A DNA stretch of 64,000 nucleotides. Origin: Candidatus Eiseniibacteriota bacterium (GTDB taxonomy: Bacteria; Eisenbacteria; RBG-16-71-46; CAVPCR01). Below, one piece after another: positions 25,087-44,592 of this stretch. Location: assembly GCA_963823555.1 (NCBI GenBank), contig CAWGMA010000001.1:384001-448000 (forward strand), read 5' to 3'. The notes beneath the pieces were generated by a model. It saw nothing but the letters and a program-made list of their open reading frames with translations, ran no database searches and was not told the DNA's origin. A program made the position numbers and the translations under genes. Positions within the stretch are counted from its first letter, which is position 1. The number at the start of each line of letters is the position of its first letter.

Positions 25087-25962
25087 CTAGAAGTTGATGA
25101 CGAGCGATGTCGTCAGGTTGGTGTCGAGCTTCTCCTTCTCGACGGTCGAGGTTCCGACCTCCGTGGCCGCCCCCGCGAACGGATCCTGGTCGTAGATCTT
25201 GATCTCCTCGAGCGGCGGGATGTTGCGGTAGAGGATGCGGAAGCCAGCCTTGAGACCGACCTTCTCGGTCATGGCGACGGTGACCCCGTTGTACCAGTCG
25301 GTACGATGGTCCTTGAATTCATCGAAGCTGTCGTTGAACGTGAGCTGGCTCGTGTAGGTTGTGGTCCCGGTGAGCTTGTTTTCGTATCCATAGCCGAGCT
25401 GGAAGCCGGGATAATCCCTGCTCTCCTCGTCGGTGAAATCCTCATAGGTGTAGGTCACGTTGTAGGTGGTGCGGAACTGGACCTTGTTCGAGTCGATCCA
25501 GTTGTTGCCGAGACCGGCTCCGGCGATGTAGCGCTGCTCGATGCCAGCAGGGGGATTGCGCTCAGCATCGAAGGCGACGTTCCAGAACAGTCGCTGCGTG
25601 ATGTCCTTGCCGTACCCGGTCTTGCCGTAGAGCCGGTTGGTGTCGGTCTTACGGGGCGGATCGGTCAGGGTGAAGTTGCCCTCGCCGGGGGTTCCGATCC
25701 CGAAGCGGTCGCCGGAGAAGGACCGGCTGTAGAGGGCACCCACCTCGAGGTAGTACTCCGCGTCAGCCCAGATCCGACGGGTCGTGTTCTTGGCGCCGAG
25801 CGTGGTGGTGTTCGAGTTGCCGCTCGTCGAGACGAAGCTCAGCTCGGCGGCATCGGTCCAGCCGAGCTTCTTCTCCTCGTCCTGGGCGGCTGCTGGCTGA
25901 TCCAGGACCAGGGATCCCAGGGCCAGCGTGATGGCAAGGGCTGTCATGACGCGCATCTTCAT
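25087..25962 (-). CDS. DUF481/YdiY-like outer-membrane beta-barrel protein
   Basis: GGAGGAGG RBS, signal peptide, TSGNSNT motif, alternating beta strands, terminal Phe (SLVINF). Confidence 0.75.
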   Translation of the reverse strand: MKMRVMTALAITLALGSLVLDQPAAAQDEEKKLGWTDAAELSFVSTSGNSNTTTLGAKNTTRRIWADAEYYLEVGALYSRSFSGDRFGIGTPGEGNFTLTDPPRKTDTNRLYGKTGYGKDITQRLFWNVAFDAERNPPAGIEQRYIAGAGLGNNWIDSNKVQFRTTYNVTYTYEDFTDEESRDYPGFQLGYGYENKLTGTTTYTSQLTFNDSFDEFKDHRTDWYNGVTVAMTEKVGLKAGFRILYRNIPPLEEIKIYDQDPFAGAATEVGTSTVEKEKLDTNLTTSLVINF

Positions 25963-26161
25963 CCTCCTCCGCGGCGGCTGTTGGCGAACCGGGGGCCTGG
26001 AACTCGAAAAATCGGGCCGTAGGTTACCAGACCGAACTTGGCCGGGAGAGATGGAAGGCAAAAATCTACAATGGAAATTCGAGAACCGCCGCGATGGCGG
26101 AAGTCGTAGATGGGTCAAGGGGTTGGCCCGTTGGTCCCGGCGGGCAGGGGAAGGAGGGCCC

Positions 26162-28513
26162 GTGAAAGTCGATCTGCCGGCCGGGGACATGGCACCGGCC
26201 ACCAGCCTGCCTCGTGATGCGGGCATCCCTGCTCCCGGGACCGGGGGCGATGCGAGCGCCGGGCCGATGATCCTCGTCGCCTCGCTCTCCTTCACGCTCC
26301 TTGCCCTCGAGGTGGCATGGACCCGGATCTTCTCGGCGGAGTTCTTCTACAACTTCGCGTTCCTGGTGCTATCCCTCGCTGTCCTCGGGCTCGGTGTCGG
26401 CGCTCTCGTGCTCAGGCTCATGCCACGGCTCGGCAGGCAAGAGCATCTGCCGGCCATCCTCGTCTTGACCGGCCTCGCGGCGCTTTCCGGCCCGCCGCTG
26501 GTCTTCCGGCTCGGCCTCGATATCTCGCACGTGGTCGGGAGTCCGATCATGGCCGGGAAACTCGTTCTCGCCATTCTCCTCCTCGGTGCCGCTTACTTCT
26601 TCGGGGGGATGGCGCTCGCCAGCGTGTTCAAGCGCGGCCACCGCCGACTGGACCGCCTCTACATGGCGGATCTCTTCGGGGCAGGGCTGGGCGTCGTCGT
26701 CGCCGTCCTCCTCATGGAGCGGCTCGGCACTCCATCCGCCACGTTTGCCGTCGCGACGCCGGTGCTCGGGGCGGCGTTCATCATGGCCCGGCGATGGTCT
26801 CGCTTGCTACCGGCCGCGCTCCTCGTGCTCATGATCGTCCTCGGGGTCCGGGGGGGAGATCTCCTCCAGGTCCAGCGTCGCGAGCCGGCACCCGTGATCG
26901 CCACCCACTGGGACTCGATCGCCAAGGTGAAGATCTACGACCGCGGCCCTGAGCACCGTGGTCTCAACATCGACAACGCCGCCAACTCCCCCGTCTACCG
27001 GTTTGACGGGGACTGGGATCGTCCCGATTCCTTGCGCTTCCAGTTCGGGATCGACGTCACCCATCTCATCACTCGATTCGAGGCCTGCACCTTCCTCTCG
27101 CTCGGTGCGGGCGGAGGCAGCGACGTCCTGCAGGCCCTGCAGGCCGGGGCGGAGGAAGTGCATGCCGTCGAGGTCATTCCATATGTGAACGAGCTGATGG
27201 TCTCGGGAGATCTTGCCGCTTACTCGGGTCATATCTACGCCGATCCGCGGGTCATCGTTGCCACCGAGGATGCGCGCTCCTATGTGCGGCGCCATCCGCA
27301 GACCTTCGACGTAATCTACTCGCTCAGCTCCAACACCTTCGCCGCGCTCTCGGCGGGAGCCTTCGCGCTCGCCGAGGACTACCTGTTCACGACCGAGGCC
27401 TTCCAGGACTACTGGCGAGCACTCACCGATCAAGGCTTCATGATGATGGAGCACCAGTTCTACATGCCGCGCCTGGTGAGCGCGATGCTCGACGCGCTCT
27501 CCGGGCTTGGGGTCGAGGATCCTGGCGCCCATATCGCGCTCTACGATCTGCCGAGCATGCGGCGGCAGATGGTGCTCCTCTCCCGGCAGCCGCTGACCGC
27601 CGACCTCGTGAACCGCGCGTTCGGTGAGCTGACCCCCGAAGTGGCCGAGCACATCCAGCTCGTGTATCCCCCGCCTGCCGGCCAGGAGGAGCACCTCTTG
27701 AGCCGGATCATGCGTGACGGATGGCGAGAAGCACAGGCCGGCGCTCCGATCGACCTCTCGCCCAGCACGGATGACCGCCCGTTCGCTGCTCAGCTCGGTC
27801 GCTGGCAGAACTTCTCCTTCGATGCGCTCACCGGTCTGAGCCCGCTGGCCGAGGTCAAGGGCTTCCCGCTCGCCAGGCTGCTCATCGTGACCGTTCTCCT
27901 CATCGTCGCCCTGCTCGTGATCCCCCTCATGCTCCTGCCCTACGTCGCCAGCGGCGGGCCCAAGATCGGCCCCGTGCCCTGGCTCTACTTCGCCGCCATC
28001 GGCTGCGCCTTCATGGCGGTGGAGGTGATCCTGATCCAGCGCTACGCGCTGTTCATCGGCCCCTCGGCCCTGGGTTTCGTCACGATCCTGGTCACGCTGC
28101 TCCTGAGTTCCGGGCTGGGCAGCCGGTGGGCCCGCCAGGTCCCCGATGGCGTCGTGTTCGGAGCCATCGTGGGGTTCATCCTCCTCGAGGTCCTTCTCTG
28201 GCGCCGTGCCACCAATGCGCTTGCCGCCTTGCCGCTCGCCGCTCGGATGGGGGTCACCGCGCTTCTCGTGGCGCCCCTGGGATTCTTCATGGGCATGCCC
28301 TTTCCCCGGGCCGGGCAGCGCGTGGGTGAGCTCATCGACTGGGGATTCGCGGTCAACGGCGCGGCCTCGGTGATCGGGGCAACCGGGATCCTGCTGGTGG
28401 CCTTCGCTCGCGGGTACGACGCGGCTCTCCTCGTGGCGGCCCTGCTCTATGCGATCGCCCTCGGGCTTGCACTCTTGAAGCCGGCCTGGGCCGAGCCACC
28501 GCCGGATTTCTAG
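26162..28513 (+). CDS. Membrane-embedded spermidine-synthase-like (class I SAM-dependent) protein
   Basis: N- and C-terminal TM blocks (LYMADLFGAG, AVNGAASV); LGAGGGSD, VEV, EDARSY, FDVI, TDDRPF; GTG start after AAGGAGG. Confidence 0.8.
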   Translation: MKVDLPAGDMAPATSLPRDAGIPAPGTGGDASAGPMILVASLSFTLLALEVAWTRIFSAEFFYNFAFLVLSLAVLGLGVGALVLRLMPRLGRQEHLPAILVLTGLAALSGPPLVFRLGLDISHVVGSPIMAGKLVLAILLLGAAYFFGGMALASVFKRGHRRLDRLYMADLFGAGLGVVVAVLLMERLGTPSATFAVATPVLGAAFIMARRWSRLLPAALLVLMIVLGVRGGDLLQVQRREPAPVIATHWDSIAKVKIYDRGPEHRGLNIDNAANSPVYRFDGDWDRPDSLRFQFGIDVTHLITRFEACTFLSLGAGGGSDVLQALQAGAEEVHAVEVIPYVNELMVSGDLAAYSGHIYADPRVIVATEDARSYVRRHPQTFDVIYSLSSNTFAALSAGAFALAEDYLFTTEAFQDYWRALTDQGFMMMEHQFYMPRLVSAMLDALSGLGVEDPGAHIALYDLPSMRRQMVLLSRQPLTADLVNRAFGELTPEVAEHIQLVYPPPAGQEEHLLSRIMRDGWREAQAGAPIDLSPSTDDRPFAAQLGRWQNFSFDALTGLSPLAEVKGFPLARLLIVTVLLIVALLVIPLMLLPYVASGGPKIGPVPWLYFAAIGCAFMAVEVILIQRYALFIGPSALGFVTILVTLLLSSGLGSRWARQVPDGVVFGAIVGFILLEVLLWRRATNALAALPLAARMGVTALLVAPLGFFMGMPFPRAGQRVGELIDWGFAVNGAASVIGATGILLVAFARGYDAALLVAALLYAIALGLALLKPAWAEPPPDF

Positions 28514-28669: not shown

Positions 28670-29647
28670 ATGCCCTTTGCGCTCGGGATCGACATCGGCG
28701 GCACGTTCACCAAGATGGTGGCGCTGGCGGCGGATCATGAGGTCCTTGCCGAGAGTCGCGTGCCCACCGAGTCCCGAGCGGGGGCGACGGAGCTCGTGGC
28801 CCGTGTGGTAGCCGAAGCCCGGGCGATGTGCGCCGGAGCCGGGCTCGACCTGGCGCGGGCGGTCGGGGTCGGAATCGGATTGGCCGGCCTCGTCGATCGC
28901 GCGAGCGGCAGGCTCATGGCCAGTCCCAATCTGCCTGGATTCGAGGGCTTCGCCGCCGCCCAAGCCTTCGGCCAGTCGCTCCTGATCCCCGCGATCGTCG
29001 AGAATGACGCTGGAGTCTTCGCGCTCGCCGAGTCCCGGCTCGGCGCCGGGCGGGGCCGTGATCCGATCGCTCTCCTGACCCTGGGCACCGGGGTCGGTGG
29101 CGCGATCGTCCATGCCGGACGCATCTTTCATGGTTGGCGTGGCTTTGCCGGTGAGTTCGGGCACACGGGGCTCGCGGTGGAAGAAGGACCGCGCTGTGCC
29201 TGCGGGCAGCAGGGCTGCATCGAAGCCTACCTGAGTTCGAGACACGTCGTCGCGCTCGCCCTCGACCTGTCCGTGCGCATGGCGGAGCGGCCGGGCCCGA
29301 TGCTGGCGCGCGCGCTTTCATCCGGGGAGGCCACGGCGCGCACGGTCGGCGAGGCCGCCCGCGCCGGAGATCCGGTGGCGCGGGCGGTGTTCACCGAACT
29401 GGGCCGCTACCTGGGTCTGGCCGTCGCCAACATCATCTCGGCCCTCAACCCGGCGGCCGTCATCATCGGAGGGGGCGTCTCCCTCGCCGGAGACGTGCTC
29501 ATCGACACGGCCCGCGCCACCGCGCTCGCACGCGTCATGCCACCGCTGGCCGAAGGAGTGGCCATTCTGCCCGCCTCCCTCGGGGATCGCGGCGGTACGC
29601 TGGGTGCGGCCCTCCTCGCCCTCGACGATGGACCGGATCTGTGCTGA
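28670..29647 (+). CDS. ROK-family sugar kinase (glucokinase-like)
   Basis: GIDIGGT, ENDA, LTLGTGVGG, GEFGH, CACGQQGCIE. Confidence 0.92.
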   Translation: MPFALGIDIGGTFTKMVALAADHEVLAESRVPTESRAGATELVARVVAEARAMCAGAGLDLARAVGVGIGLAGLVDRASGRLMASPNLPGFEGFAAAQAFGQSLLIPAIVENDAGVFALAESRLGAGRGRDPIALLTLGTGVGGAIVHAGRIFHGWRGFAGEFGHTGLAVEEGPRCACGQQGCIEAYLSSRHVVALALDLSVRMAERPGPMLARALSSGEATARTVGEAARAGDPVARAVFTELGRYLGLAVANIISALNPAAVIIGGGVSLAGDVLIDTARATALARVMPPLAEGVAILPASLGDRGGTLGAALLALDDGPDLC

Positions 29648-32600
29648 TGCTTCGATCTCGGACTGGCAGGGAGATCATCGCGCTCCTGGGCGGCGGGCTC
29701 ATCGGGCTCGTGCTGATCGCCCTGGCGTTGACTCCGGCCGGGGCCCAGCTCGAGACGACGTTCCCCGGTGGCTCCGCCGACGATTCTCTCGCCACGCGCG
29801 TAACCGGCGCCCGCCTGCGGCATGTCGTGGTGGATGGTGTTCCCATCGTCGTCGTCGATTCGGTCCGGATCGACCATCGCGCGACCACGATCACGGGACG
29901 CGTCGGCCGTTACGACCGCCAGAACCAGCGTGCCGTTGTCGATGGGGATGTTCGCATCGTGGACGGTCCGACCACGATCACCGGCGATCATGGCACGTTC
30001 GATGTCGGCTCCGGGGTCGGCACCCTCGTCGGCCGTGTGGTCGTCCGCCGGGAGGATCTTACGATCCGGGCACCTCACGCCACCTACGACCGTTCGAGCC
30101 GGATCGCGCGCTTGCGGGGCGGGGTCCAGATCCAGGACAAGGAGCGCCGCGTCGATGCCGACAGCCTGGTCTACTGGTTTGCCGAGGACCGGGCCATGGC
30201 CTTCGGCAACGTGCGCATCGACCAGACCGGGAAGGAAGAGGCGGTGCTACGCGGCGAGGTCGCCGAGTACCTGAGGAGCACGGGAGATCTGCGGCTCCTC
30301 GAGCAGGCCTCGCTCGTCATCGAGGACGAGGGCCAGCCGGTCACGGTCACGGCTCGCGATCTCCAGTACCAGAAGGAAGGCGCGGAGGTCGTCGCCGAGG
30401 GTAGCGTCGTCATTCGCCAGGAGGAGGCGGAGGCCACCGCCGACCACGCCACGTTCTTCCGGGATGATCGCCGCGCCGTTCTCACCGGGTCCCCGCTCAT
30501 GCGCGATCCCGACGGTCTCGTCTCCGGCGACTCGCTCGTCTTGTCCTTCGACCAGGGCAAGCTCTCACAGCTCGGTGCGCTGGGTCAGGCGCGGGCAAAC
30601 TACAGCCGCGAGCTCAAGACCGGGGGGAAGGAGGAGCTTCATATCTCCGCCGATCGCCTGGACATCGAATTCGAGGACGGCGAGGCGCGGCAGATGAGCC
30701 TCGCCGGAAATGCGGAGAGCCTCTACCTGCCGGCGGGGGAGCCGCTCGAATCCGGGGCGATACGCAATGTCGCCAAGGCGGATCGGATCCAGGTATCGCT
30801 GAGCAAGGGGCAAGCCGAGCGCATCGTTCTCGAGGGTGATGCCACGGGCGAGTACTTCTATCGCCTGGAGCGCCCCGACTCGCTGGGCGAGGTGAATGCC
30901 CTCGGTCGCAGCGATTCCAGACTGGCCGGGGTGCTGGGAGATTCGGCTCGCGCCTTTGCCGACAGCGCTCGGAGCGGGCTCCGCCGCATCCTGGCCGAGA
31001 TGGACAGCGCCCGGGCCGTCGAGGGGGAGGCCCTCGGAGCTGCGGCCGACTCCGCGTTCGCCGAGGCCGACTCCGCGTTCGCCGAGGCCGACTCCGCGTT
31101 CGCCGGGGCCGAGATGGCTCTCGCCGCGGCCGCCGACTCGACGGCGGTCCTGGCTCCCATCTCCCTCGCCGCCGCCCTTCCCGATTCCATCGTCCAGAGC
31201 GTGCGCTATCAGGCGGACCGCATCGAGCTCCTCGTCGAGCGCAACGAGATTCTCCTCATCCACAATGCCGAGCTCTTCCACGAGGACCTCCACCTCAAGG
31301 CCGGACGGGTGCGCTTCTCGGTCGAGGACCGCACCCTCGTGGCCAGCGAGTCCCCGGTGCTGGCCGATGGCAGCCAGACCATGGAGGGGGAGGCGATGGC
31401 GTATGAGTTCGGGAGTCGGGAGGGGGCGGTGCGGCAGGGCGAGACGACCTTCGAGCGCGGCATCTACACCGGGCGGGAGCTCTACAAAGCGGGGGACAGG
31501 GTCTTCTACGTCAAGGGAGCCAACTACACCACGTGCACGATTGCCGAGCCGCACTATCACTTCACCGGGAACGAGATGAAGGTCTATCTCGACGACAAGG
31601 TGGTCACCCGGCCGGTGGGCCTCTTCATCCGCAGCGTGCCCATCCTCGCACTGCCTTACTACATCTTCCCGATCAAGGCCGGCCGGCATTCCGGGATCCT
31701 CATGCCCCAGGTCGAGTTCGGATTCTCCCAGACCCGGGGCCGTTTCGTACGCAACGCCGGCTATTACTACGTGATCAACGACTATGCCGACACCAAGATC
31801 TGGGGCGATTTCTCCGAGTATTCGCCCCATGTCATCGGCAACGTCGACTTTCGCTACGCCAAGCGGTATCTCATGAACGGGAACTTCGCATCCAAGTTCA
31901 GCTTCGGGGGCGGGCAGGAGCGCTGGGACGTCCGGGGCAGTCACGGCCAGGATCTGGGCCAGCGCCGGACCCTCCAGGCCAACATCGATTTCCTCTCCGA
32001 TCGTGAATTCCGGGTGAACGACCAGGGGCAAACCGACGAGGAGCGATTCTCGAGCCAGCTGCGTTCCAACGTGACCTTCGCCAAGAGCTGGTCCACCCAG
32101 AGCGCGCGCGTGACCCTGGAGCGGACCCAGAATCTGCAGAACCTGAGCGGACAGACCCAGCCCGGCAAGGGCACGGTCACCGGCAGCCTCCCGTCGCTCT
32201 CGTATTCCTTTCAGAGCCGTCCGATCGGCCGGCGGCCCGACGCCAAGGGGCGCGACGGCCGCTGGCCCGCGCTCGCCACCACCAACTACTCGTTCTCGGG
32301 TGACTACCGCCGGGGATTCGATTCCCGGCGGGCTCCGAGCGCCTATCTGCAGACCGCCTCGGGCCGGGCCACCGTCTCCGACGGCCGCCGGGCCGGCGTG
32401 CTCAACCTGACCCCATCGTTCTCGGTGAACACGAGCTGGGATGAATACCTGGAGCTGGCTCCCGACACCGCAGGGGTGATCCGCCGCGGGGACGAAGATG
32501 TCTTCCGCGGGCAGTACAGCGCCGGCCTGACCACACGGACCGAGATCTACGGCATGCTGAGTCCGGCCCTCGGCCCCTTCAAGGGCTTCCGCCATATCGT

Positions 32601-33459
32601 GACCCCGACCGCCTCGCTGTCCTTCGCCAAGCGGTTCGACTCGCGCTCCCTGGTCTCCACCGGACCGGCCAGCTCGTCCTTGAACTTCGGCGTGTCCAAT
32701 CGCATCGAGACGCGGCTCCCGGGCGACAAGGGCAAGCTTCGCGTGGTGCGTGATTTCCTCACCTTCAACCTCGCCTCAACTTACGATCTTTCCAATCGTT
32801 CCGCCCGCCGCTTAACCCCGATTCGACTCGATGCACGCCTCCGCCCCGGCGTCGGCCGCGACATCGAGGTGGCGTATGCGACCACCTATGACCCCTACGC
32901 CATGCGTCCCACTCGCTACGACATCTCCGGCCGATTCACCTTCGTGCGGGCCGGCGGGACGGTGTCGACGGCGCGGCCGGGGGAGGTGCCGCCGGGTCAG
33001 CTGCGCGGAGATGACATGCTGGGCCTCGGCGACGACGGCCAGCCCGAGGGCGGCGCCGTCGTCGATTCGGGAGACGTCGGTGGCCGCTCGGACGCCGCGC
33101 TCGGTGCTGCGGTCTCGCCGGCCGAACTCTTCCCGCGCGCCTTCTCCGCCGGTGGCACCATCTCCTACGCCGGGGGGGGCGGGGGCGACAAGACCCTGCA
33201 GGCCAGCTTCGACACGACTTTCAGACCGACGCCCAAGTGGCGGCTCGAATATCGGCTACGCTACGACCTCATGGATCGCGATGTGATTGCCCAGAGCTAT
33301 GCCGTGGTGCGCGATCTCCACTGCTGGGAGGCCCAGTTCCGCCGTACCTACGACGTCGGGAACTGGGAGTACTACTTCCGGATCGCGATCAAGGATCTGC
33401 CGGAGATCTTCTACGAGAGAGGTCGCGAGCGCTCGAACCTGCCGAGCCTGATCCGGTAG
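29647..33459 (+). CDS. lptD: LPS-assembly protein LptD with greatly extended N-terminal OstA/LptA-like region
   Basis: Repeated OstA-like strands (A.GNV.I, L.G.P); YTTC..PHY; RHSGILMP; C-terminal RDLHCWE. Confidence 0.82.
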   Translation: MLRSRTGREIIALLGGGLIGLVLIALALTPAGAQLETTFPGGSADDSLATRVTGARLRHVVVDGVPIVVVDSVRIDHRATTITGRVGRYDRQNQRAVVDGDVRIVDGPTTITGDHGTFDVGSGVGTLVGRVVVRREDLTIRAPHATYDRSSRIARLRGGVQIQDKERRVDADSLVYWFAEDRAMAFGNVRIDQTGKEEAVLRGEVAEYLRSTGDLRLLEQASLVIEDEGQPVTVTARDLQYQKEGAEVVAEGSVVIRQEEAEATADHATFFRDDRRAVLTGSPLMRDPDGLVSGDSLVLSFDQGKLSQLGALGQARANYSRELKTGGKEELHISADRLDIEFEDGEARQMSLAGNAESLYLPAGEPLESGAIRNVAKADRIQVSLSKGQAERIVLEGDATGEYFYRLERPDSLGEVNALGRSDSRLAGVLGDSARAFADSARSGLRRILAEMDSARAVEGEALGAAADSAFAEADSAFAEADSAFAGAEMALAAAADSTAVLAPISLAAALPDSIVQSVRYQADRIELLVERNEILLIHNAELFHEDLHLKAGRVRFSVEDRTLVASESPVLADGSQTMEGEAMAYEFGSREGAVRQGETTFERGIYTGRELYKAGDRVFYVKGANYTTCTIAEPHYHFTGNEMKVYLDDKVVTRPVGLFIRSVPILALPYYIFPIKAGRHSGILMPQVEFGFSQTRGRFVRNAGYYYVINDYADTKIWGDFSEYSPHVIGNVDFRYAKRYLMNGNFASKFSFGGGQERWDVRGSHGQDLGQRRTLQANIDFLSDREFRVNDQGQTDEERFSSQLRSNVTFAKSWSTQSARVTLERTQNLQNLSGQTQPGKGTVTGSLPSLSYSFQSRPIGRRPDAKGRDGRWPALATTNYSFSGDYRRGFDSRRAPSAYLQTASGRATVSDGRRAGVLNLTPSFSVNTSWDEYLELAPDTAGVIRRGDEDVFRGQYSAGLTTRTEIYGMLSPALGPFKGFRHIVTPTASLSFAKRFDSRSLVSTGPASSSLNFGVSNRIETRLPGDKGKLRVVRDFLTFNLASTYDLSNRSARRLTPIRLDARLRPGVGRDIEVAYATTYDPYAMRPTRYDISGRFTFVRAGGTVSTARPGEVPPGQLRGDDMLGLGDDGQPEGGAVVDSGDVGGRSDAALGAAVSPAELFPRAFSAGGTISYAGGGGGDKTLQASFDTTFRPTPKWRLEYRLRYDLMDRDVIAQSYAVVRDLHCWEAQFRRTYDVGNWEYYFRIAIKDLPEIFYERGRERSNLPSLIR
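31045..31107 (+). repeat. 21-bp in-frame tandem repeat x3 (gccgactccgcgttcgccgRg) encoding ADSAFAE
   Basis: Units start at 31045, 31066 and 31087. Confidence 0.92.
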
Positions 33460-33724: not shown

Positions 33725-34030
33725 GTGAATAAGACCGAGCTCACGGCTGCCGTGGCTGAGCGGGTTGGCCTCAGCCTCAAGGATGCTCGCGTCACCGTCG
33801 ATGCCATCTTCGCGACGGACCGGCGTGGCATCATCTCCTCCGAACTGGCGGCAGGTCGCAAGGTGCAGATCACCGGGTTCGGCTCCTTCGAGACCCGCAA
33901 GCGCAAGGCACGGACCGGGAGAAACCCGCAGACAGGCGAGTCGATCGAGATCGCTGCCAGTCGCTATCCGGCCTTCCATCCCGGCCGGGCCCTCAAGGAG
34001 CGCGTCCGGATCAAGGGGAAGAAGGGCTAG
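33725..34030 (+). CDS. hup: HU-family DNA-binding protein
   Basis: MNKTEL, VQITGFGSFE, RTGRNPQTGE, PAFHPG. Confidence 0.95.
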   Translation: MNKTELTAAVAERVGLSLKDARVTVDAIFATDRRGIISSELAAGRKVQITGFGSFETRKRKARTGRNPQTGESIEIAASRYPAFHPGRALKERVRIKGKKG

Positions 34031-34266: not shown

Positions 34267-34334
34267 CTGCCGGTCCGAATTCCCCACCATCTGTGACAGG
34301 CGGCGCCGATGGCGCCGCGGAGGCTCTTGAGAAC

Positions 34335-35318
34335 GTGCATCGCATCCATGACCGTCTTGCCTTCGGTTCGCTCCTCCTGGCTCTCGCGGTAGCCGGCGCC
34401 GGCGTCTCGGCCGAAGCTGCCAAACGCATCAAGGACCTTGAGCTGACCATCCTCTCCACGACCTCCAATCGCGGCGAGGTCGATCCCTGCGGCTGACACA
34501 AGTCCCAGAAGGGAGGGCTGGCCCGGAGGGCTGCCCTAATCGACTCGCTACGCACCGAACGAGGCGCCGTGCTCCTCGTCGACGCCGGGGACTATGCGCA
34601 TCCGACCATGACCCACGAGGATCGCGAGAACTGGTTCATCCTGCGCTCCATGGGCGGGATGCGCTATGACGCCATGACTCTCGGCGAACTCGAGCTCTAT
34701 CGCGGCACCGACTACGTCCAGTCGATCCTCGATTCGACCCGGGTACCGGTCACCCTCGCCAATGCCCGCTTCACGGCCGGCAACAAGCCGATCGGCGAGC
34801 CCTACCTCATCCACCAGGCGGGCGATGTCACCTATGGCATCATCGGACTCATCGGGCAGGATTTCGGGGAGGGCAAGGAGAAGTTCTCCGAGCTCGGGTT
34901 CACCATCGACGAGCCGTTCGAGACGGCGGCCAAGCTCGTCCCCGAGGTGAAGAAGAAGGCGGATGTGGTGGTCGTTCTCGCCCACTTGGGCTCCGCCGAT
35001 GCCTTCCAGCTGCCCAAGGCGGTGAAGGGTATCGACGTCGTCGTTTTCGGGCACTATCCGGGCACGGTCGCTCCGACCCAGGTGGAGGGGGCGGTCACGG
35101 TGCGCCCGGGGCAAAGGGGGCAGTACATGGGCGAGACCAAGCTCGTCCTGAGCCCCGAGAACCAGATCGTGTCCTACTCGGGCGAGGCGGTGGCCCTCGA
35201 TGTGAAGAAGATCGGCGAGGAACCGAAGATCGCCGCCGGGCTTGCTGCCTTGAAGAAGGTCCTGGGCAAGTCGGCGACGTCGGTCGGGGAAGCAGACGCC
35301 AGCCACTCGCTCGAGTGA
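34335..35318 (+). CDS. Exported UshA-like (5'-nucleotidase N-terminal fold) selenoprotein; in-frame UGA at 34494-34496 read as Sec (PCGU)
   Basis: ORFs 34245-34496 and 34569-35318 share a frame. Readthrough gives signal peptide-LTILSTTSNRGEVDPCG-U-HKSQKGGLARRA...LLVDAGD...YDAMTLGELE...LAH...GH. Confidence 0.85.
34514..34537 (+). promoter_or_regulatory. Putative bacterial SECIS hairpin
   Basis: AGGGC-U-GGCCC-GGA-GGGCU-GCCCU: two 5-bp stems, a bulged U, and a G-starting apical loop 29 nt after the UGA. Confidence 0.6.
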
Positions 35319-35439: not shown

Positions 35440-36825
35440 ATGCGGCAAGAAGGGGACCGGGGAATCAACTACTACCAGAGCATCGTCCAGACGATCGGCC
35501 GCACCCCGCTCGTCCGGCTCAACAAGATCGTCAAGGGACTGAAGCCGCTCCTTCTGGCCAAGGTCGAGAGCTTCAACCCCGGCGGCAGCGTCAAGGACCG
35601 TATCGGGTGCGCCATCATCGACGCCGCCGAACGCGAGGGGTTGCTCAAGCCGGGCGGCACGATCGTCGAGTCCACTTCCGGCAACACCGGGATCGGCCTC
35701 GCCCTGGTGGCCGCCACCCGCGGCTACCGGCTCATCGCCACCATGCCCGACAAGATGAGCCGGGAGAAGATCAATCTCCTCAAGGCGTACGGGGCCGAGG
35801 TCGTGGTCACCCCGACCGCCGTTCCCCCCGAGCACCCGGAGAGCTACTACGAGGTGGCCAAGCGGCTGGCCCGGGAGATCCCGGGCGCTTTCTACGCCAA
35901 CCAGTACTTCAACCCGGAGAACCCGCTTGCGCACTACAAGACCACGGGCCCCGAGATCTGGGAGCAGACCGGCGGGCAGGTCGATGTCTTCGTCGGCGGT
36001 CTCGGCACCGGCGGCACCATCTCCGGTGTCGGGCGCTATCTGAAAGAGAAGAACCCGGCGGTGCAGATCGTGGGCGCCGATCCGGTCGGGTCGATCCTCT
36101 GCCAGTACTTCTATACGCGCGAGGTCGGTCATGCCCACACCTACATGATCGAGGGCATCGGCGAGGACATCATTCCCGGCACCTCGCACTGGGAGTTCAT
36201 CGACCGCATGATCACGGTCTCCGATCACGAGGCCTACAACTGGGCGCGCCGCGTGTCACGCGAGGAAGGGATCTTGATCGGCAGTTCGGGCGGCGCGGCC
36301 ATCACCGCCGCGCTCACCGTGGCCCGGGAGCTCGATGAGCGGCATGTGATCATCGTGCTCTTGCCTGACACCGGTGAGCGCTACCTGACCAAGGTCCACT
36401 CCGACGAGTGGATGCGGGACAATCGCCTGCTCGATACTCACTTCGTCAAGGTCGGCGAGGTCCTGCGACGGAAGTCCAAGGAGCTACCGGCCCTGGTTGC
36501 CGTCGAGCTTCAGGAGCCGATCCGGAAGGCGCTCGATCTCATCCGTCGCTACAACATCTCGCAGCTTCCGGTGCGCCGGGAAGGGGAGATCGTGGGTTGC
36601 ATCGAGGAAGCGGCCATCATGTCCACCGTGCTCGAGGATGCGCAAACGCTCGATTCGCCGGTCGAGAAGATCATGCACCCGCCGCTCCATCGCGTGAAGG
36701 CCGATGACTCGGTCGATCAGGCCATCAAGTTGCTCGCCGATCGCAACGCCGTCCTGGTCGAGGAGACGGGGGAGCCCTGTGGCATCCTCACTCGCTTCGA
36801 TCTCATCGAATACGTGGCCACCTAG
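35440..36825 (+). CDS. cbs: Cystathionine beta-synthase with C-terminal CBS domains
   Basis: NPGGSVKDR, TSGNTG, DKMSREK, GTGGT, IEGIG, PDTGERY; CBS pair (ISQLPV, GILTRFD). Confidence 0.92.
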   Translation: MRQEGDRGINYYQSIVQTIGRTPLVRLNKIVKGLKPLLLAKVESFNPGGSVKDRIGCAIIDAAEREGLLKPGGTIVESTSGNTGIGLALVAATRGYRLIATMPDKMSREKINLLKAYGAEVVVTPTAVPPEHPESYYEVAKRLAREIPGAFYANQYFNPENPLAHYKTTGPEIWEQTGGQVDVFVGGLGTGGTISGVGRYLKEKNPAVQIVGADPVGSILCQYFYTREVGHAHTYMIEGIGEDIIPGTSHWEFIDRMITVSDHEAYNWARRVSREEGILIGSSGGAAITAALTVARELDERHVIIVLLPDTGERYLTKVHSDEWMRDNRLLDTHFVKVGEVLRRKSKELPALVAVELQEPIRKALDLIRRYNISQLPVRREGEIVGCIEEAAIMSTVLEDAQTLDSPVEKIMHPPLHRVKADDSVDQAIKLLADRNAVLVEETGEPCGILTRFDLIEYVAT

Positions 36826-36862
36826 GTCCATTCGCCAGGCTGATCCCCGGAGGAAACGCGCC

Positions 36863-38068
36863 GTGTCGACCCGAACCGAACCTCGCCGCCCCATCGAGCC
36901 CCGCTCCCTGCAGGAGGGGGAGAAGGCCTGGCGCTTTGCCACGCTCGCCATCCACGCCGGGCAGGCGCCCGATCCCCTGACCGGTGCCGTCACCGTTCCC
37001 ATCTACCAGACCTCGACCTACCACCAGCCTGAGCTGGGGAAGCACAAGGGCTACGAGTACTCGCGTACGCAGAACCCGACCCGCTCGGCGCTCGAGGCGA
37101 ACCTGGCCGCGCTCGAAGGCGGTCGCTACGGCTTCGCCTTCGGCTCGGGAATGGCGGCCATCGGGGCCATCGCCCATCTCCTCGAGTCCGGGGATCACAT
37201 CGTGGCCTCCGATGACATGTACGGCGGTACCTACCGGCTCTTCAGCATGATGCTCCAGCGCTACGGGCTCGAGTTCAGCTTCGTCGATAGCGCGAGCCTC
37301 GAGGCGATCGAGGGAGCGATCCGGCCCAACACCCGCTTGATCTACGTCGAGACCCCGACCAACCCCCTCATGAAGGTGAGCGACCTCGCGGCGGTGGCTC
37401 GGCTCGGCCAGGAGCGGAAACTGCTCACGGTCTGCGACAACACCTTCATGACGCCTTTCTTCCAGCGACCGCTCGGGTTCGGGATCGACCTCGTCGTGCA
37501 CTCGACCACCAAGTACCTGAACGGGCACTCGGACATGGTCGGGGGCGCGGTCGTCACCGATCGGCAGGACCTGGCCGAGCGGCTGGCCTTCATCCAGAAC
37601 GCGGCCGGCGGGGTGCCCGGACCCTTCGACTCCTGGCTCGTGCTCCGCGGCACCAAGACGCTCGCCCTGCGCATGGAGCGGCACAACCAGAACGCCATGG
37701 CCATCGCCCAGTGGCTCGAGCGGCAGCCGAAGGTGAAGAAGATCCACTACCCGGGGCTTCCGAGTCATCCCGGGCACGAGCTCACGCAGCGCCAGGCGAC
37801 CGGCTTTGGCGGCATGATCTCGTTCGATCTGGAGACCATCGATCGGGCGCGGCGCTTCGTCGGCGCCGTGCGCGTGTTCACGCTGGCCGAGAGCCTGGGC
37901 GGGGTCGAGAGCCTGGTCTGCCATCCGGCGTCCATGACTCATGCCTCGGTCCCCGCGGCGGAACGGGCGCGAATCGGGCTCGGCGACGGGCTCGTGCGCC
38001 TGTCGGTCGGGGTCGAGGATGCCGAGGATCTGATCGCGGACGTGGAGCAGGCGCTCGCTCACGCCTAG
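36863..38068 (+). CDS. Cystathionine gamma-lyase/synthase
   Basis: YEYSRTQNPTR, SGMAA, ETPTNP, DNTF, HSTTKYLNGHSD, AESLGGVESL, RLSVG. Confidence 0.93.
   Translation: MSTRTEPRRPIEPRSLQEGEKAWRFATLAIHAGQAPDPLTGAVTVPIYQTSTYHQPELGKHKGYEYSRTQNPTRSALEANLAALEGGRYGFAFGSGMAAIGAIAHLLESGDHIVASDDMYGGTYRLFSMMLQRYGLEFSFVDSASLEAIEGAIRPNTRLIYVETPTNPLMKVSDLAAVARLGQERKLLTVCDNTFMTPFFQRPLGFGIDLVVHSTTKYLNGHSDMVGGAVVTDRQDLAERLAFIQNAAGGVPGPFDSWLVLRGTKTLALRMERHNQNAMAIAQWLERQPKVKKIHYPGLPSHPGHELTQRQATGFGGMISFDLETIDRARRFVGAVRVFTLAESLGGVESLVCHPASMTHASVPAAERARIGLGDGLVRLSVGVEDAEDLIADVEQALAHA

Positions 38069-41354: not shown

Positions 41355-44592
<3,238 letters not shown>

Follow-up and report, generated by a model that had tools for sequence, protein, structure and literature searches.

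A probable heme-less UshA-like selenoprotein encoded by a read-through gene in an Eisenbacteria genome

The gene described here occupies positions 34335..35318 (+) of the window, the whole 64-kb stretch of DNA that was analysed. Read through exactly one internal TGA (34494-96), it encodes a protein of 327 aa, which the frame, the best family match and a predicted model describe as a single-domain, heme-less UshA-like selenoprotein. The codon context is GEVDPCG-U-HKSQKGGLARRA, giving a PCGU motif (P51-C52-G53-U54; C52-G53-U54 codons at 34488..34496, +, assigned from the sequence and the codons of relatives) with selenocysteine (Sec) as residue 54, and the stop lies 274 codons past Sec. C52 and U54 are the sole Cys/Sec residues of the protein, which contains no CxxCH motif. 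A GGAGG sequence (34319..34323, +), likely the ribosome-binding site, is found 11 nt 5' of the GTG start, and the alignments of close relatives begin at residue 1-3; a promoter/terminator scan gave no signal exceeding shuffles. Hydropathy alone predicts a signal peptide at about residues 1-28 (34335..34418, +; cleavage site inferred), with a hydrophobic stretch at about residues 9-25 and no lipobox Cys, and the pLDDT of the AlphaFold model is low as far as residue 30. Export via this signal peptide, as claimed in an earlier sequence-only reading of the DNA, is likely. The same reading expected annotation to truncate the gene, and the database protein record (P0002) is indeed only the 249-aa downstream piece; many close relatives are likewise cut at the UGA in databases and named nucleotidases.

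The gene is preceded by an LptD-like gene (29641..33459, +; annotation of window genes), the upstream marker of a conserved slot, and by a gene encoding an HU-like DNA-binding protein (33725..34030, +; PF00216). A cystathionine beta-synthase (CBS)-type gene with matches to PALP and CBS domains follows directly (35440..36825, +), and then a cystathionine gamma-lyase (CGL)-type gene (36704..38068, +; PF01053; the coordinates are ORF bounds and the true start is likely later). Among the 40 genomes with a full-length CBS match, CBS lies less than 1 kb downstream of the family gene in 21; a further 8 have the two within 17 kb, and in the other 11 they are on different contigs or there is no family match. 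LptD is a more constant neighbour than CBS, which is replaced by MgtE or other genes in several families. The CBS adjacency hints at sulfur chemistry, although it may reflect inherited synteny alone. Two long ORFs elsewhere in the window have no Pfam match. Judged by eye, the product of the one at 41355-42506 begins with a signal-like segment, contains one CxxCH and ends in a region resembling a beta-barrel, and that of the one at 25928-28513 is a multi-pass membrane protein whose middle part looks methyltransferase-like.

Selenocysteine is almost certainly the residue inserted at the TGA (34494-96), as the sequence-only reading had claimed from the single TGA within one frame. The genome (92.5% complete) encodes selA, selB, selD and a tRNA-Sec with anticodon tca (selC), so that a search suggested with that reading recovered the entire machinery, and selD of the same genome has an in-frame TGA of its own. 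Across the phylum, selA is present in 59 of the 61 genomes searched and family matches in all 61; most best matches contain one TGA, and the weak matches include ordinary nucleotidases. The closest named records, with 67-82% identity, come from Candidatus Eisenbacteria assemblies. Homologs had been expected to carry either Cys or TGA at this codon, and among motif-bearing loci it is TGA in 42, including this gene and its paralog, and TGC/TGT in 11 (counted over L008-L067, leaving out two duplicates, one divergent PCGRC paralog and rows lacking the motif). The aligned column has C in 48/50 rows of the Cys group.

That the TGA is a true stop, a sequencing error or a codon recoded as Trp or Gly, and the gene hence broken or split, is barely credible. 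In favour of a stop or an error, no bridging of the codon was seen among the reads and contigs listed: four of the 22 listed runs were examined as contigs, none of the pieces listed spans 34494-96 and none of the differences listed falls at the codon, and two RNA runs gave near-identical contigs over the HU gene with almost zero depth over the selenoprotein gene. Against this stand the recurrence of the same TGA in 42 loci with Cys in 11 others, the SECIS signature that accompanies the TGA and the complete Sec machinery. Recoding to Trp or Gly was rejected because homologs carry Cys there, and within the window TGA is the terminating codon of many genes, this one included.

A bacterial SECIS (bSECIS) hairpin lies within the coding sequence at 34514..34537 (+), on the evidence of folding, codon signature and covariation. 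It has 10 pairs (-17.0 kcal/mol), a bulged U34519 and a GGA loop (34525-27) whose first base is the 29th past the UGA, and it shows all four features of the bacterial SECIS model given in PMC13188914. The genome's selD likewise has a GGA loop, at nt 21. The stability of the hairpin is weak evidence by itself (z of -0.18 to -1.48 in five windows of 36-97 nt), and reaches z -2.51 in a tight 28-nt window that was picked around the hairpin; judged across the aligned loci, it is conservation and covariation, rather than stability, that raise it above chance. The underlying codons are fixed in the TGA group (GCC in 41/42, CGG in 42/42), and the codon signature occurs in 42/42 TGA loci vs 1/11 Cys loci. 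This pattern was derived from the same 42 and 11 loci, and was hence checked on loci fetched later, where it was found in 13/18 TGA vs 0/6 Cys loci (one repeat excluded). Of the five misses, three fall in a divergent PCTU group, and the other two retain the stem but close it with a GUC loop. The 1568 long ORFs of the genome contain 111 Ala-Arg-Arg-Ala sites, and not one is encoded as GCC CGG AGG, the codons used in this gene. Over 34 distinct hairpins, 92.5% of cells are paired, with 17 double-sided changes vs 4.4 in shuffles, a value reached in 0/500 shuffles, and slid controls were far lower; these rows are kin rather than independent, and the contrast with the Cys genes serves as the real control. 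The hairpin with a G-starting loop 29 nt after the UGA was thus where the sequence-only reading had placed it, but its bulged U was rejected as the conserved form, since pairing reaches 92.5% of cells in the unbulged register and 84.1% in the bulged one. Three loci of family f8 (L084, L085, L086) form a divergent heme-less PCTU subgroup in which the downstream RNA lacks the usual SECIS signature.

The class to which this protein belongs is not new. PMC2398784 lists UshA-like (COG0737) proteins with a CxU motif from ocean samples, where 76 sequences had Sec and 92 had Cys, and the family is listed again in PMC9312934 and PMC13188914, the latter adding the model NF041198 and a family 2. Its cataloguing goes back to 2008 or earlier, and NCBIfam models exist for it; the main text of PMC1976440 and PMC13326102 does not mention it. 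The UshA-type domain and the CxU motif make this protein a member of the UshA-like CxU selenoproteins in the COG0737 sense of the surveys, the placement originally proposed. The best family match is NF041198 (UshA_like_PCGU), with which it shares the PCGU motif, a calcineurin-like N-domain and Sec/Cys pairs among relatives, at E 1.2e-42 and 146.2 bits vs a cut-off of 275, over profile positions 9-274 of 519. Unlike the proteins described by this model, it has no C-terminal multiheme region. The six heme-fused relatives scanned scored just 210-269 bits, also below the cut-off of 275. By these matches the protein is a heme-less variant of a catalogued family, rather than a formal member of NF041198. 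NF049981 (UshA_like_Sel_2, family 2) is also a short UshA-like selenoprotein model (262 positions), but it matches weakly (residues 37-119, 41.2 bits vs a cut-off of 140), and its motif is CxxU according to PMC13188914, whereas that of this protein is CxU. A search of the ESM Atlas with a Cys relative (P0004) returned hypothetical-protein and calcineurin-like clusters only. In the literature searched, which lay mostly outside subscription journals and supplements, neither a functional study of UshA-like selenoproteins nor a paper linking Eisenbacteria with selenocysteine was found.

The AlphaFold model (pLDDT 91, pTM 0.87) matches the N-terminal domain of 5'-nucleotidases, with VIA Z 34.4 and rmsd 2.1 over 273 residues aligned to 2z1a, and Foldseek matched it to UshA/CD73/CpdB-type 5'-nucleotidases at E 2e-24; there are weak family matches to UshA, CpdB and PF00149. 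It ends with a linker helix at about residue 310, and Pfam detects no C-terminal substrate-binding domain (PF02872). Alignment of the metal motifs to 10 canonical nucleotidase/SoxB-type proteins, all of which (10/10) keep DxH and GHxH, shows that DxH has become S44-N45-R46 (D44 replaced by S, H46 by R), GNHE has become GELE (N118 replaced by E, the catalytic His119 by L) and GHxH has become GHYP (H242 replaced by P). For the two-metal series DxH/GD/GNH/H/GHxH the protein thus reads SNR, GD, GEL, H and GHYP. Like the N-terminal catalytic domain of UshA/CD73/CpdB it keeps D86, H217 and H240; unlike that domain it has lost DxH, the His of GNH and the second His of GHxH, is not followed by a C-domain, and has gained a CxU loop, 6-8 residues past the lost DxH. 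The metal ligands had been called degenerate in the sequence-only reading, which holds for D44, H46, His119 and H242 but not for the putative ligands D86 (34590), E118 (34686), H217 (34983) and H240 (35052), retained in the alignment over 34590..35054 (+); the changes to GELE and GHY had been read correctly, and DxH one residue off, as TSN. Following UshA numbering, we take the lost residues to be those of metal 1 and catalysis, and D86/E118/H217/H240 to be the ligand set of metal 2. This D/E/H/H set is retained in 35/40 Sec rows (11/12 heme-less, 24/28 heme-fused), and in 27/41 heme-less and 5/8 heme-fused Cys rows. It is found in merely 32/73 CxC domains of the wider family and is lost in the genome's own heme-fused Sec paralog.

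The C-terminal 5'-nucleotidase domain is missing, as noted earlier from the sequence and now from Pfam and the model, but the informative loss is that of a tetraheme cytochrome c. A tetraheme cytochrome c region (3-4 CxxCH) is fused to the UshA-like domain in 28/42 TGA loci, the C-terminal part of the NF041198 model (about 344-519) maps onto the CxxCH-rich region of the fused relatives, and the heme region of the paralog in this genome is similar to cytochrome c554 (E 1.4e-7). For a natural Cys-tetraheme relative (P0056), AlphaFold predicted a 31-residue linker helix (pLDDT 81.9, pTM 0.78). The slot LptD-(HU)-X is conserved, as judged by eye, in 22/25 loci of other families, and the best match is heme-fused in 24/25 of the loci compared. 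One fused gene fills this slot in the sister family (L041, L042); two copies, the first fused and the second a heme-less Sec form, share it in L020, L021 and L022; and here the heme-less copy stands alone. Families f8, f15 and f16 contain complete heme-less Sec genes as well; heme-less copies recur, often adjoining a heme-fused twin, as in the tandem pairs of L022, L079 and L080. In a quick tree, in which several rows are cut at locus ends and which places this protein only to within a 42-row clade, a heme-less copy groups with the fused gene next to it in four instances (support 95-100), and the heme/heme-less label requires at least 10 changes. The simple reading of these sequences is repeated duplication with heme loss, in which a heme-less copy such as this one would arise by tandem duplication and then lose the heme domain; gene conversion could mimic such repeated loss. 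In family f9 (L051-L057, L061, L062), a conserved gene of about 335 aa lies 3' of the Sec-tetraheme gene, and the two copies scanned had no Pfam match.

The genome contains further members of the family. A second PCGU gene with four CxxCH (L035:13447-16060; G000:C1 ~1971446-1974059) follows rhodanese and MauE/DoxX genes at a distance of about 9 kb from selA, and its SECIS is identical to that of this gene at 27/28 nt, despite 45% protein identity; the same heme-fused paralog occurs behind a rhodanese gene in G001 (L068). A heme-less Cys paralog with the motif HCGC (L036:7574-8557; G000:C3 ~713573-714556) is 57% identical to this protein and lacks the SECIS signature, and provides a natural Cys control in the same genome. 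A divergent exported PCGRC paralog with CxxC spacing lies between tRNA genes (L037:7014-7730, -; G000:C1 ~2006013-2006729 onward).

A Cys/Sec role other than that of a nucleotidase, suggested by the sequence-only reading, is likely in view of the loss of the metal-1 and catalytic residues and of the C-domain. The favoured form of this role, ahead of metal binding and of a SoxB-like enzyme with a Sec nucleophile, is that of a periplasmic selenol/thiol redox protein relaying electrons in trans, a proposal to which we give an even chance. C52 and U54, being the only Cys/Sec residues, would cycle between selenolthiol and selenenylsulfide, one bound metal may help to hold an anionic, probably sulfur-containing substrate, and electrons would pass in trans to a separate cytochrome or thioredoxin-type partner, for example the PCGU-tetraheme paralog of the genome; a separate partner is likely because the protein lacks the four-heme domain of its relatives. 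The redox role is favoured because the Cys/Sec pair is constant and relatives are fused to redox-type domains. The pair stays where metal residues are lost, as in the genome's heme-fused Sec paralog, which suggests that it, and not the metal site, is the constant feature of the family. The heme-fused paralog, lying behind rhodanese and MauE genes, is a further redox link. In a set of 26 long hits selected for Pfam, relatives that carry CxC show fusions to TlpA/AhpC-TSA (P0190, P0220, P0248), to DsbA/thioredoxin-like domains (P0118, P0119, P0122, P0247, P0258) and to c554, and these TlpA, DsbA and c554 fusions point to periplasmic thiol/selenol redox. P0118, P0119 and P0122 are about 1200 aa long and combine a pair of CxC UshA-like domains with one DsbA-like domain and four hemes. 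Among new representatives, CxC was found in 70/144, with fewer than three heme motifs in 57/70. Against a redox role, CxU, with its one spacer, is not a thioredoxin-type motif, PMC2398784 keeps UshA-like proteins separate from the families with conserved Cys-based redox motifs, and the retained D/E/H/H set fits metal binding or catalysis equally.

C52 and U54 could instead be metal or metalloid ligands replacing those of metal 1, in a mixed S/Se and D/E/H/H site of a periplasmic soft-metal (Zn, Cu, Hg, As) binding protein or chaperone. The position of CxU just past the lost DxH, the four metal-2 residues in most Sec rows, an MgtE transporter gene 3' of the family gene in several relatives and the frequency of heme-less forms among the CxC proteins (the 57/70 above) are all consistent with this, yet the four-residue set is patchy in the wider CxC family and lost in the heme-fused Sec paralog, and the fusion partners are redox modules; we regard it as possible, if on the unlikely side. 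A one-metal enzyme with a Sec nucleophile, cleaving or transferring S-S, S-SO3 or Se-containing groups in the periplasm, loosely as in SoxB, and feeding the adjacent CBS/CGL pathway, is decidedly unlikely. The thiosulfohydrolase SoxB is involved in periplasmic sulfur chemistry; it is the second-best NCBIfam match (E 4e-20) and has the fold in common (Z 31.3, rmsd 3.0, 285 aligned), CBS is often adjacent, and a rhodanese gene lies 5' of the paralog in two genomes. The SoxB score is nevertheless 71.6 bits vs a cut-off of 550 (TIGR04486), the second metal site and C-domain of SoxB are absent, and all 5'-nucleotidases have the same fold, at higher Z; the CBS synteny may be passive inheritance, and both CBS and CGL act in the cytoplasm. 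Annotation of window genes turned up no sox gene. It is very improbable that the protein is still a phosphoesterase or nucleotidase, the JGI name of many relatives, with the C-U pair merely a structural bond. The fold and the weak matches to UshA, CpdB and PF00149 would fit, and a structural bond in the C52/U54 loop is possible because a canonical nucleotidase-type protein (P0109) has two Cys in that loop; against this, the protein has neither the catalytic His nor the substrate-binding domain and has lost three metal-1 residues, and a Sec codon and SECIS kept across a class would be costly for a structural bond.

Beyond the favoured redox role, the calcineurin-like fold might here bear an active site of a new type: a Cys-Gly-Sec loop would replace the first metal beside a one-metal site and turn over periplasmic S/Se compounds, the heme-less copy taking electrons in trans from the tetraheme paralog and serving the CBS/CGL pathway across an uncultured phylum; this combination is speculative and unlikely as a whole. 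UshA-like selenoproteins are widespread, and such genes are held in databases cut at the UGA, often under nucleotidase names. The gene described here encodes a natural minimal version of the family, heme-free, with about 300 residues in the mature form and a single Cys and a single Sec. This minimal form, together with the 57% identical Cys paralog in the genome, makes expression and assays far simpler than with the cytochrome fusions, and the protein is valuable as a small and testable way into an orphan family. Other candidate Sec codons were noted in this genome (G000) in a crude screen, which missed even this gene and is hence no census: C2:649882(-), C4:69366(+), C1:1632372(+), C1:2024024(+), C2:139022(+) and C4:338494(-). 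The motifs in this screen include TPT-U-PHC, CSI-U-I, HPT-U-GPC, WAS-U-IGG, NFR-U-GVC and STG-U, and the candidates may include thioredoxin-like, HdrA, TlpA and methyltransferase proteins.
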